A DNA stretch of 4,342 bases. Source: a virus (Duplodnaviria; Heunggongvirae; Uroviricota; Caudoviricetes). The notes under the pieces are model-generated. The model searched no databases. It had not been told where the DNA came from and saw only the letters and a program-made list of their open reading frames with translations. The first letter of the stretch is position 1, and each line of letters begins with the position of its first letter. The stretch lies in IMG/VR virus record IMGVR_UViG_2609460218_000006; one strand, given 5' to 3'. Below are positions 1 to 4,342 of the stretch, one piece after another. A program made the translations under genes and the position numbers.

Positions 1-124
1 GCAGTTGCCATGTTTTACGGCAGTGAGAGCAGAGATAGCGCTGATGTCCGGCAGTGCTTTTGCCGTTACGCACCACCCCGTCAGTAGCTGAACAGGAGGG
101 ACAGCTGATAGAAACAGAAGCCAC
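1..124 (-). CDS. insA: IS1 InsA (transposition regulator), N-terminal 41 codons; 3' part outside window
   Basis: Minus-strand translation from the GTG at 124..122 gives [41 protein letters not shown], matching IS1 InsA as I recall it. The frame runs off the left edge, so it is absent from the ORF track. Confidence 0.85.
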
Positions 125-156
125 TGGAGCACCTCAAAAACACCATCATACACTAA

Positions 157-179
157 ATCAGTAAGTTGGCAGCATCACC
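157..179 (-). repeat. IS1 left terminal inverted repeat (IRL, about 23 bp)
   Basis: nt 157-179 (atcagtaagttggcagcatcacc) is the reverse complement of GGTGATGCTGCCAACTTACTGAT, the IS1 terminus as I recall it. Lambda-H-like coding sequence begins immediately after, at nt 180. Confidence 0.85.
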
Positions 180-1455
180 GAAAATCCTGCAGGCAGATTA
201 CAACACGCTGATGGCGGCGGCGAAAAAGGATTATGAAGCGATGCTGAAAAAGCCGAAACAGTCCGGCGTGAAAGTGTCTGCGGGCGATCGTCAGGAAGAC
301 AGTGCTCATGCTGCCCTGCTGACGCTTCAGGCTGAACTCCGGACGCTGGAGAAGCATGCCGGAGCAAATGAGAAAATCAGCCAGCAGCGCCGGGATTTGT
401 GGAAGGCGGAGAGTCAGTTCGCGGTACTGGAGGAGGCGGCGCAACGTCGCCAGCTGTCCGCACAGGAGAAATCCCTGCTGGCGCATAAAGATGAGACGCT
501 GGAGTACAAACGCCAGCTGGCTGCACTTGGCGACAAGGTTACGTATCAGGAGCGCCTGAACGCGCTGGCGCAGCAGGCGGATAAGTTCGCACAGCAACAA
601 CGGGCAAAACGGGCAGCCATTGAGGCGAAAAACCGGGGGCTTACTGACCGGCAGGCAGCGCGGGAAGCCACAGAACAGCGCCTGAAGGAACAGTATGGCG
701 ATAATTCGCTGGCGCTGAATAACGTCATGTCAGAGCAGAAAAAGACCTGGGCGGCTGAAGACCAGCTTCGCGGGAGCTGGATGGCAGGCCTCAGGTCCGG
801 CTGGAGTGAGTGGGAAGAGAGCGCCACGGACAGTATGTCGCAGGTTAAAAGTGCAGCCACGCAGACCTTTGATGGTATTGCGCAGAATATGGCGGCGATG
901 CTGACCGGCAGTGAGCAGAACTGGCGCAGCTTCACCCGTTCCGTGCTGTCCATGATGACAGAAATTCTGCTTAAGCAGGCAATGGTGGGGATTGTCGGGA
1001 GTATCGGTAGCGCCATTGGCGGGGCTGTTGGTGGCGGCGCATCCGCATCAGGCGGTACAGCCATTCAGGCCGCTGCGGCGAAATTCCATTTTGCAACCGG
1101 AGGATTTACGGGAACCGGCGGCAAATATGAGCCAGCGGGGATTGTTCACCGTGGTGAATTTGTCTTCACGAAGGAGGCAACCAGCCGAATTGGTGTCGGC
1201 AACCTGTACCGCCTGATGCGGGGCTATGCGGAAGGTGGTTATGTGGGCGGTGCCGGAAGTCCGGCGCAGATGCGGCGGGCTGAAGGCATTAATTTTAATC
1301 AGAACAATCACGTGGTGATTCAGAACGACGGTACGAATGGTCTGCCAGGTCCACAGATGATGAAGGCAGTGTATGACATGGCCCGCAAAGGTGCCCGTGA
1401 TGAAATTCAGGCACAGATGCGCGATGGTGGTCTGTTCTCCGGAGGTGGACGATGA
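180..1455 (+). pseudogene. H: Tail tape-measure protein gpH, 3' fragment (about 424 C-terminal codons) truncated at its 5' side by IS1
   Basis: Translation from nt 181 (KILQADYNTLMAAAKKDYEA ... KAVYDMARKGARDEIQAQMRDGGLFSGGGR, stop TGA 1453-1455) matches the C-terminal half of lambda gpH (853 aa) as I recall it. In-frame stops lie upstream at 85-87, 103-105 and 154-156 inside IS1. The track's TTG start at 166 is inside the IS1 inverted repeat and is not a genuine start. Confidence 0.9.
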
Positions 1456-1781
1456 AGACCTTCCGCTGGAAAGTGAAACCCGGTATGGATGTGGCTTCGG
1501 CCCCTTCCGTCAGGAAAGTGCGCTTTGGTGATGGCTATTCCCAGCGAGCGCCTGCCGGGCTGAATGCCGACCTGAAAACGTACAGCGTGACGCTTTCTGT
1601 TCCCCGTTGGGAGGCCACGGCGCTGGAGTCGTTTCTGGCTGAGCACGGGGGCTGGAAAGCCTTTCTGTGGACGCCGCCTTATGAGTGGCGGCAGATAAAG
1701 GTGACCTGCGCAAAATGGTCGTCGCGGGTCAGTATGCTGCGTGTTGAGTTCAGCGCAGAGTTTGAACAGGTGGTGAACTGA
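1452..1781 (+). CDS. M: Minor tail protein gpM (tail-tip assembly), 109 aa
   Basis: Translation MKTFRWKVKPGMDVAS...RVEFSAEFEQVVN is near-identical to lambda gpM as recalled. GGAGG at 1441-1445 sits 6 nt before the ATG, and the ATG overlaps the H stop (ATGA, 1452-1455). Confidence 0.95.
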   Translation: MKTFRWKVKPGMDVASAPSVRKVRFGDGYSQRAPAGLNADLKTYSVTLSVPRWEATALESFLAEHGGWKAFLWTPPYEWRQIKVTCAKWSSRVSMLRVEFSAEFEQVVN

Positions 1782-2479
1782 TGCAGGATATCCGGCAGGA
1801 AACACTGAATGAATGCACCCGTGCGGAGCAGTCGGCCAGCGTGGTGCTCTGGGAAATCGACCTGACAGAGGTCGGTGGAGAACGTTATTTTTTCTGTAAT
1901 GAGCAGAACGAAAAAGGTGAGCCGGTCACCTGGCAGGGGCGACAGTATCAGCCGTATCCCATTCAGGGGAGTGGTTTTGAACTGAATGGCAAAGGCACCA
2001 GTACGCGCCCCACACTGACGGTTTCTAACCTGTACGGTATGGTCACCGGGATGGCGGAAGATCTGCAGAGTCTGGTCGGTGGAACGGTGGTCCGGCGTAA
2101 GGTTTACGCCCGTTTTCTGGATGCGGTGAACTTCGTCAACGGAAACAGTGGCGCCGATCCGGAGCAGGAGGTGATCAGCCGCTGGCGCATTGAGCAGTGC
2201 AGCGAACTGAGCGCGGTGAGTGCCTCTTTTGTACTGTCCACGCCGACGGAAACGGATGGCGCTGTTTTTCCGGGACGTATCATGCTGGCCAACACCTGCA
2301 TCTGGACCTATCGCGGTGACGAGTGCGGTTATAGCGGTCCGGCTGTCGCGGATGAATATGACCAGCCAACGTCCGATATCACGAAGGATAAATGCAGCAA
2401 ATGCCTGAGCGGTTGTAAGTTCCGCAATAACGTCGGCAACTTTGGCGGCTTCCTTTCCATTAACAAACTTTCGCAGTAA
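1781..2479 (+). CDS. L: Minor tail protein gpL (tail-tip protein with C-terminal cysteine cluster), 232 aa
   Basis: Translation MQDIRQETLNECTRAEQSASVVLWEIDLTEVGGERYFFCNEQ...FLSINKLSQ is near-identical to lambda gpL as recalled. Start overlaps the M stop (TGATG, 1779-1783). C-terminal cysteines lie in CIWTYRGDECGYSG and KCSKCLSGCKF. Confidence 0.95.
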   Translation: MQDIRQETLNECTRAEQSASVVLWEIDLTEVGGERYFFCNEQNEKGEPVTWQGRQYQPYPIQGSGFELNGKGTSTRPTLTVSNLYGMVTGMAEDLQSLVGGTVVRRKVYARFLDAVNFVNGNSGADPEQEVISRWRIEQCSELSAVSASFVLSTPTETDGAVFPGRIMLANTCIWTYRGDECGYSGPAVADEYDQPTSDITKDKCSKCLSGCKFRNNVGNFGGFLSINKLSQ

Positions 2480-2484
2480 ATCCC

Positions 2485-3228
2485 ATGACACAGACAGAAT
2501 CAGCGATTCTGGCGCACGCCCGGCGATGTGCGCCAGCGGAGTCGTGCGGCTTCGTGGTAAGCACGCCGGAGGGGGAAAGATATTTCCCCTGCGTGAATAT
2601 CTCCGGTGAGCCGGAGGCGTATTTCCGTATGTCGCCGGAAGACTGGCTGCAGGCAGAAATGCAGGGTGAGATTGTGGCGCTGGTCCACAGCCACCCCGGT
2701 GGTCTGCCCTGGCTGAGTGAGGCCGACCGGCGGCTGCAGGTGCAGAGTGATTTGCCGTGGTGGCTGGTCTGCCGGGGGACGATTCATAAGTTACGCTGTG
2801 TGCCGCATCTCACCGGGCGGCGCTTTGAGCACGGTGTGACGGACTGTTACACACTGTTCCGGGATGCTTATCATCTGGCGGGGATTGAGATGCCGGACTT
2901 TCATCGTGAGGATGACTGGTGGCGTAACGGCCAGAATCTCTATCTGGATAATCTGGAGGCGACGGGGCTGTATCAGGTGCCGTTGTCAGCGGCACAGCCG
3001 GGCGATGTGCTGCTGTGCTGTTTTGGTTCATCGGTGCCGAACCACGCCGCAATTTACTGCGGCGACGGCGAGCTGCTGCACCATATTCCTGAACAACTGA
3101 GCAAACGAGAGAGGTACACCGACAAATGGCAGCGACGCACACACTCCCTCTGGCGTCACCGGGCATGGCGCGCATCTGCCTTTACGGGGATTTACAACGA
3201 TTTGGTCGCCGCATCGACCTTCGTGTGA
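2485..3228 (+). CDS. K: Tail-tip assembly protein gpK with N-terminal JAB/MPN (JAMM) domain and C-terminal NlpC/P60-like domain; 247 aa as drawn
   Basis: Continuous ORF starting 5 nt after the L stop. HSH at nt 2686-2694 begins a complete JAMM metal-binding motif (HSHPGGLPWLSEAD = H-x-H-x7-S-x2-D), with an upstream E-x-CG element (APAESCGF). TDCYTLF and NHAAIY...HH in the C-terminal half fit an NlpC/P60-type Cys/His arrangement. The C-terminal 199 aa match lambda K as recalled. Start is uncertain: an internal ATG at 2629 with GGAGG at 2613-2617 corresponds to the classical 199-aa start. Confidence 0.85.
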   Translation: MTQTESAILAHARRCAPAESCGFVVSTPEGERYFPCVNISGEPEAYFRMSPEDWLQAEMQGEIVALVHSHPGGLPWLSEADRRLQVQSDLPWWLVCRGTIHKLRCVPHLTGRRFEHGVTDCYTLFRDAYHLAGIEMPDFHREDDWWRNGQNLYLDNLEATGLYQVPLSAAQPGDVLLCCFGSSVPNHAAIYCGDGELLHHIPEQLSKRERYTDKWQRRTHSLWRHRAWRASAFTGIYNDLVAASTFV

Positions 3229-3796
3229 AAACGGGGGCTGAAGCCATCCAGGCACTGGCCACACAGCTCCCGGCGTTTCGTCAGAAACTGAGCGACGGCT
3301 GGTATCAGGTACGGATTGCCGGGCGGGACGTCAGCACGTCCGGGTTAACGGCGCAGTTACATGAGACTCTGCCTGATGGCGCTGTGATTCATATTGTTCC
3401 CAGAGTCGCCGGGGCCAAGTCAGGTGGCGTATTCCAGATTGTCCTGGGGCTGCCGCCATTGCCGGATCATTCTTTACCGCCGGAGCCACCCTTGCAGCAT
3501 GGGGGGCAGCCATTGGGGCCGGTGGTATGACCGGCATCCTGTTTTCTCTCGGTGCCAGTATGGTGCTCGGTGGTGTGGCGCAGATGCTGGCACCGAAAGC
3601 CAGAACTCCCCGTACACAGACAACGGATAACGGCAAACAGAACACCTATTTCTCCTCACTGGATAACATGGTTGCCCAGGGCAATGTTCTGCCGGTTCTG
3701 TACGGTGAAATGCGCGTGGGGTCACGCGTGGTTTCTCAGGAGATCAGCACGGCAGACGAAGGGGACGGTGGTCAGGTTGTGGTGATTGGTCGCTGA
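3126..3796 (+). pseudogene. I: Tail assembly protein gpI, disrupted by a 1-nt deletion (-1 frameshift) in a G-run at about 3446-3449
   Basis: Frame 0 from ATG 3126 gives MAATHTLPLASPGMARICLYGDL...GGVFQIVLG, matching lambda gpI residues 1-108, then diverges (LPPLPDHS...) to a stop at 3528-3530. From nt 3449 the other frame reads AAAIAGSFFTAGATLAAWGAAIGAGGMTGILFSLGASMVLGG...QVVVIGR (stop 3794-3796), matching the rest of lambda gpI. One extra G at 3446-3449 would restore a 223-codon ORF. A sequencing error is an equally possible cause. Confidence 0.8.
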
Positions 3797-3814
3797 TGCA
3801 AAATGTTTTATGTG

Positions 3815-3842
3815 AAACCGCCTCCGGGCGGTTTTGTCGTTT
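3815..3842 (+). terminator. Terminator-like GC-rich hairpin plus T-tract in the I-J intergenic region (function unproven)
   Basis: aaaccgcc (3815-3822) pairs with ggcggttt (3827-3834) around a 4-nt loop tccg (3823-3826), followed by T-rich ttgtcgttt. Seen in sequence; no energy calculation was possible. Confidence 0.3.
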
Positions 3843-3844
3843 AT

Positions 3845-3848
3845 GGAG
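3845..3848 (+). promoter_or_regulatory. Shine-Dalgarno sequence for J
   Basis: GGAG at 3845-3848, 8 nt upstream of the J ATG at 3857. Confidence 0.6.
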
Positions 3849-3856
3849 CGTGAGGA

Positions 3857-4342
3857 ATGGGTAAAGGAAGCAGTAAGGGGCATACCCCGCGCGAAGCGAA
3901 GGACAACCTGAAGTCCACGCAGTTGCTGAGTGTGATTGATGCCATCAGTGAAGGGCCGATTGAAGGTCCGGTGGATGGATTAAAAAGCGTGCTGCTGAAC
4001 AGTACGCCGGTGCTGGACAGTGAGGGGAATACCAACATCGCCGGTGTCACGGTGGTGTTCCGGGCTGGTGAGCAGGAGCAGACTCCGCCGGAGGGATTTG
4101 AATCCTCCGGCTCCGAGACGGTGTTGGGTACGGAAGTGAAATACGACACGCCGATCACCCGCGCCATCACGTCGGCAAACATCGACCGACTGCGCTTTAC
4201 CTTTGGTGTGCAGGCACTGGTGGAAACCACCTCAAAGGGGGACCGGAATCCGTCGGAAGTTCGCCTGCTGGTTCAGATACAGCGTAATGGTGGCTGGGTG
4301 ACGGAAAAAGACATCACCATTAAGGGCAAAACCACCTCGCAG
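3857..4342 (+). CDS. J: Tail tip / host-specificity protein gpJ (central tail fibre), N-terminal 162 codons; continues beyond window
   Basis: Translation MGKGSSKGHTPREAKDNLKSTQLLSVIDAISEGPIEGPVDGLKSVLLNSTPVLDSEGNTN... matches the lambda gpJ N-terminus as recalled. The frame is open to the window end, so it is absent from the ORF track. Confidence 0.9.
   Translation, partial: MGKGSSKGHTPREAKDNLKSTQLLSVIDAISEGPIEGPVDGLKSVLLNSTPVLDSEGNTNIAGVTVVFRAGEQEQTPPEGFESSGSETVLGTEVKYDTPITRAITSANIDRLRFTFGVQALVETTSKGDRNPSEVRLLVQIQRNGGWVTEKDITIKGKTTSQ

Follow-up and report, generated by a model that had tools for sequence, protein, structure and literature searches.

The window, i.e. the whole stretch of 4,342 nt analysed here, opens inside an insertion sequence, IS1, and closes inside gene J of a lambda-like prophage. 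Between these two lie the 3' part of the tape-measure gene H and the tail genes M, L, K and I (Table 1).

Table 1. Positions of the features in the window (nt; a dot marks a feature without strand).
Feature	Position	Strand	Remarks
IS1 left (IRL) end	1..179	-	179 of 768 bp; the element extends past the left edge of the window
insA codons 1-41, zinc ribbon of InsA/InsAB'	2..124	-	GTG start at 124-122; translated
Promoter-like CTGCCA-16-TATGAT	145..172	-	from a consensus scan; directed leftwards, towards insA and not towards H
IS1 left terminal inverted repeat, ~30 bp	150..179	-	minus-strand terminus GGTGATGCTGCCAACTTACTGAT, read from the sequence
GAAAATCC, right-hand copy of the 8-bp target-site duplication	180..187	.	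the window holds this copy only
H 3' part	180..1455	+	from the last base of codon 435 to the stop after codon 859
Gene M, distal tail protein	1452..1781	+	intact, 109 aa; Pfam Phage_min_tail, E 6e-39; same as in L012
Gene L, tail tip hub protein	1781..2479	+	intact, 232 aa; Pfam Phage_tail_L, E 3e-100
Gene K, JAB and NlpC/P60 peptidase	2485..3228	+	open, 247 aa; Pfam Prok-JAB, NLPC_P60
Gene I, split by the loss of 1 bp from a run of G	3126..3796	+	N-terminal ORF 3126-3530; C-terminal ORF 3527-3796
Gene J (central tail fibre), first 162 codons	3857..4342	+	Pfam FNIII-A_GpJ; runs off the right end

The IS1 end and its border with H

In the original prediction the bases to the left of H had been assigned to IS1, and the alignment agreed with this. 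Nt 1-179 matched the annotated IS1A copy of E. coli 14EC007 (L001) over the entire length, i.e. 179/179 positions without a gap at 99.4% identity (E 1e-92). Bases 157-179 are the reverse complement of GGTGATGCTGCCAACTTACTGAT and are located at the element boundary. The inverted repeats of IS1 have a length of about 30 bp (PMC12428005). The insA frame starts about 55 bp inside IRL and its N-terminal codons specify a zinc ribbon (Pfam PF03811 Zn_ribbon_InsA, E 2.9e-22, 78.5 bits at a cut-off of 26.1). The weak IS1 promoter PIS1 'partially overlaps IRL' (PMC12428005), and the promoter-like site of the window is located where this overlap is expected. The inverted repeat, the position of PIS1 and the coding of the InsA zinc ribbon are as described for IS1 (IS1A/IS1E type, isoforms). 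The window copy is an isoform with one mismatch to IS1A within 179 bp; otherwise nothing of substance is different. All IS1-defining features which are testable in the window are present.

A hybrid outward promoter which might drive the 3' part of H was considered and rejected. The hexamer TTGGCA at 166-171 was without an acceptable -10 element at a distance of 16-18 bp, and the consensus scan returned no plus-strand promoter-like site near the junction facing into H.

The IS1 terminus ...GCAGCATCACC stops at nt 179 and H begins at nt 180, such that the junction reads AAGTTGGCAGCATCACC followed directly by GAAAATCCTGCAGG. In intact H genes GAAAATCC is preceded by ...AAAGACGG and not by ...CATCACC. 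Because the bases in front of GAAAATCC in intact H differ from the IS1 end, the breakpoint at 179/180 is unambiguous. In the closest relatives H has 859 codons, and nt 180 falls on the third position of codon 435 (Gly), the equivalent of codon 429 of 853 in lambda H. Thus, the alignment with IS1A and the comparison with intact H bore out the predicted end of IS1 at nt 179, the start of lambda-H-like sequence at nt 180 and a break at 'about codon 430'.

The H part of the window matches the intact 859-codon genes of many E. coli lambda-like prophages at 99.7-99.9% identity over their 3' part. It carries the domain Tape_meas_lam_C (Pfam PF09718, E 1e-21, 77.2 bits at a cut-off of 23) and is positioned immediately upstream of M-L-K-I-J, with Pfam assignments for all downstream ORFs. 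A full-length gpH frame which includes the N-terminal TMP_2 domain is absent from the window; what is left begins with the last base of codon 435 and continues through codons 436-859. By domain and synteny the fragment belongs to the gpH family, yet the locus is an interrupted gene and not a functional member.

At nt 242 the window and L013-L019 have a T and the H51/L012 prophage has a C; by this T a Thr codon of H reads ATG (241-243). In all IS1-bearing contigs the gene callers start a 404-aa C-terminal H fragment at ATG 241.

The tail genes downstream of H

Gene order, gene overlaps and Pfam families are those of lambda H-M-L-K-I-J. Identical residues compared to lambda amount to 104/110 in M, 230/233 in L and 159/162 in the N-terminus of J. 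The full-length H of the relatives and lambda H share 764 of 859 aligned columns; lambda H has 853 codons compared to 859 here, with a six-residue insertion after lambda residue 354. Unlike lambda, the window has an IS1 within H and a frameshift in I. Lambda is not the closest relative; E. coli prophages are (99.7%). The closest complete genome is E. coli CFSAN064036 (L012 23504-26714), in which this prophage, in its intact form, adjoins pinQ, ydfK, ynfT and a truncated ydfJ. In K-12 the Qin prophage occupies this chromosomal site. The L protein is that of the H51/L012 prophage except for one Ile in place of Thr (nt 2301), and its exact sequence is present on 48 contigs.

Intact M, L, K and J genes had been predicted. 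M, L and K are indeed open. Of J, only codons 1-162 are in the window, and I, which had been overlooked, is frameshifted. The window reads GGGG at 3441-3444, and lambda and all junction-bearing relatives have G5. The N-terminal ORF of I comprises 108 native and 26 out-of-frame residues; the C-terminal ORF begins with Met135, the start codon of which overlaps the preceding stop codon in an ATGA (nt 3527). Residues 135-223 of gpI are the part which was resolved as a plug in the lambda tail tip (PMC10721106), and the C-terminal ORF, residues 135-223, coincides exactly with this segment. A change from G5 to G4 is also seen in the unrelated assemblies L003, L004, L005 and L008. Because of this recurrence the G4 run may reflect either a hot spot of slippage or a sequencing error in the homopolymer. 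An exact look-up of the C-terminal ORF of I returned many unrelated assemblies, several of them with multiple split genes.

The window carries four private differences when compared with all 12 related loci. These are a synonymous G>A in H at 1389, a C>A at 2793 (F103L in K), a G>A at 3250 (R42Q in I) and the loss of one G of 3441-3445. Exact-protein look-ups were without a match for K, for the N-terminal fragment of I and for H fragments starting at TTG 166 and ATG 211. As K and I both carry private changes, their exact products are not on record.

The spacer between I and J folds into a long and strong hairpin at 3803-3851 (core AAACCGCC-UCCG-GGCGGUUU; -21.1 kcal/mol, z -2.85), after which comes an interrupted run of U. 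It was not called as a terminator in the terminator scan, and an Rfam scan of the window had no match. The hairpin is also present in lambda.

Insertion of IS1 versus deletion at its border

The junction contigs were reached via exact-protein look-ups with the L protein of the window and the 404-aa H fragment from ATG 241. The base-exact junction is present in seven distinct public E. coli-type contigs (L017=L020, L019=L021, L022-L027). They originate from an NCBI isolate assembly, ENA metagenome assemblies and Logan run assemblies, and one of them is common to 11 samples. Six of the seven (L019, L021-L027) break 27-196 nt inside IS1. Short-read assemblies typically break at repeats such as IS1. 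The window itself has 179 nt of IS1 at its left end and stops within J; its source contig may likewise break at repeats. BLAST searches with nt 1-600 did not find the junction in 5,426 complete E. coli genomes or in phage or plasmid collections, and the exact junction pattern had no match in GTDB species representatives, IMG/VR and JGI metagenomes.

It had been stated beforehand that the window cannot distinguish an insertion from an IS1-mediated deletion. This was correct. The left side is available in a relative. PXIF01000013.1 of GCA_003057355.1 (L017=L020; 98 kb) is the sole junction contig which spans IS1. Its organism is presumably Escherichia coli, as judged only by the source names on the exact L protein records. 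Over nt 1-4342 contig and window are 99.9% identical, with three substitutions and one 1-bp gap, none of which is in nt 1-179. The contig has a complete IS1 of 768 bp (7632-8399) with the second inverted repeat; its part 8221-8399 equals nt 1-179 of the window without a difference. On the insA strand the A6C motif TTTAAAAAAC is present, and a 232-aa InsAB' is called with InsA, HTH_Tnp_IS1 and DDE_Tnp_IS1 domains. The element is 99.9% identical to annotated IS1 copies, including one of E. coli ATCC 8739. The IRR of the IS1A copy in L001 is GGTAATGACTCCAACTTATTGAT; that of L017 begins with GGTAGTGACTCCAACTTACTGAT instead.

In L017 GAAAATCC abuts both IS1 ends (7624-7631 and 8400-8407), and the empty site in L013 has a single copy. 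IS1 is 768 bp long and generates target duplications of 8 or 9 bp (PMC12428005). The length of 768 bp, InsAB', the A6C motif and an 8-bp duplication with an AT-rich core, as known for IS1, are all seen in L017. Immediately upstream of IS1 comes the 5' half of H. When IS1 and one copy of the repeat are removed, an open H of 2580 nt results; its 859-aa product does not differ from the H protein of L013, a sibling with the empty site. Thus, what had been predicted for a simple insertion, i.e. a full IS1 of ~768 bp, the 5' half of H and a repeat of 8-9 bp of the bases from nt 180 on, was found in L017, the repeat being the 8 bp of GAAAATCC. Because a 768-bp IS1 has GAAAATCC on both sides and H is restored upon its removal, the junction in L017 is read as a simple insertion and not as a deletion. 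With IS1 in place, the N-terminal product of L017 comprises H residues 1-437 plus Arg, followed by a stop inside IS1 (438 aa; TMP_2 domain). L013-L016 and L018, the siblings with the empty site, have exactly the L protein of the window, and over nt 180-4342 their identity to the window is 99.83-99.88%. This indicates that the insertion is recent.

These contigs also bear on the question whether the junction is a chimeric assembly artefact, with H intact in the organism. IS1 is a repeat present in many copies, assemblies often break at it, and the window starts inside it. A misjoin would not account for the recurrence of a base-exact junction in independent assemblies from three sources, in one case with a contig common to 11 samples. 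Nor would it yield the two junctions with a matching 8-bp duplication which the 98-kb contig has. We therefore give next to no credence to an artefact.

A deletion-type structure does exist in another genome. E. coli 14EC007 (NZ_CP024131.1; L001 3412-4179), the sole 100%-coverage BLAST match to nt 1-600, turned out to carry a different IS1/H junction, 89 bp upstream of the breakpoint of the window. As in the window, IS1 has the same orientation and IRL abuts a lambda-type H 3' part, followed by M, L, K, I and J. In contrast, a target duplication is absent (GATGACATA versus GAGGCGCAG). On its left, IS1 is bordered by YlcI/YnfO, PerC and lysis genes, and the genes for the head and the proximal tail are missing. 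Because the breakpoint differs, a duplication is lacking and the left flank is DNA of the lysis region, 14EC007 is an independent event, an IS1-associated deletion or recombination, whereas the junction examined here is a simple insertion in L017.

For the source of the window, the left side must be taken from the 99.9%-identical L017. On this basis a simple IS1 transposition into H is the probable explanation there, too, and we would put it at roughly 85%. Conceivably, the DNA beyond IRR is not the 5' half of H in this source, and head and proximal tail genes were lost by a later adjacent deletion or by recombination between two IS1 copies. IS1 can delete DNA beside one of its ends and leave the other junction untouched. 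In E. coli genomes the median number of matching places was 11, most of them IS1 copies, such that recombination partners abound, and 14EC007 is an example of a deletion-type structure in H. Further, the left flank lies outside the window, and the four private differences mark the window as a close cousin of L017 from a separate assembly. Yet in the only contig which spans this exact junction, and to which the window is 99.9% identical, the insertion is clean, the duplication is present and the 5' half of H is intact; the remaining six junction contigs break inside IS1 and give no sign of a different left flank. Such a secondary loss is thus unlikely.

For the simple insertion we propose the following course of events. 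A 768-bp IS1 would have transposed into codons 435-437 of H in a lambda-like prophage of Escherichia coli. The staggered target cut would have been filled in, resulting in the 8-bp duplication GAAAATCC. The window begins inside this IS1, 179 bp from the IRL end, and insA is oriented such that it reads away from the H 3' part. Beyond the left edge the source would have 589 further IS1 bases up to IRR (GGTAGTGACTCC... on the plus strand), with ...GCACTGAAAGACGGGAAAATCC before IRR. H would be split in two, an N-terminal piece of residues 1-437 plus Arg, as seen in the relative, and a promoterless C-terminal piece. The frameshift in I would be a second lesion in the window, adding to the decay.

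Consequences for the prophage

GpH is the tape measure which determines tail length; the tail tube polymerises around GpH, and its C-terminal helix sits in the tail tip on a tripod of gpI (PMC10721106). Neither of the two H pieces is a full tape measure. Because H is split into an N-terminal product and a promoterless C-terminal piece, loss of a normal lambda-type tail would be expected, as reasoned from the established genetics of lambda. IS1 insertions are classically polar, and late transcription in lambda is antiterminated by Q. Therefore, M-J may still be transcribed on induction despite the polarity of IS1. A rescue of the remaining tail genes into related phages by recombination, as had been suggested beforehand, would be a reasonable expectation.

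Possibly the split module is not just debris. A C-terminal H started at ATG 241 and a gpI plug (Met135-223) reinitiated at nt 3527 could be made during late transcription and could join M, L, K and J as a tail-tip complex or short tail. If true, the host would have a tip module or a tailocin-like particle of use to it, or selection would retain the module as a recombination donor. We regard this as very improbable.

One of the standard ways in which prophages decay is the inactivation of their genes through inserted IS elements. IS1 and the lambda H-M-L-K-I-J block are both textbook entities; the case is already known in kind and nothing in it is outside known kinds. Because the junction was absent from the 5,426 complete E. 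coli genomes, it could mark the lineage of the E. coli clone which carries it. For annotation, both H pieces should be called one IS1-interrupted pseudogene and the prophage be scored as tail-defective. The locus is a clean, dated example of the inactivation of a prophage by IS1, of little weight beyond annotation.
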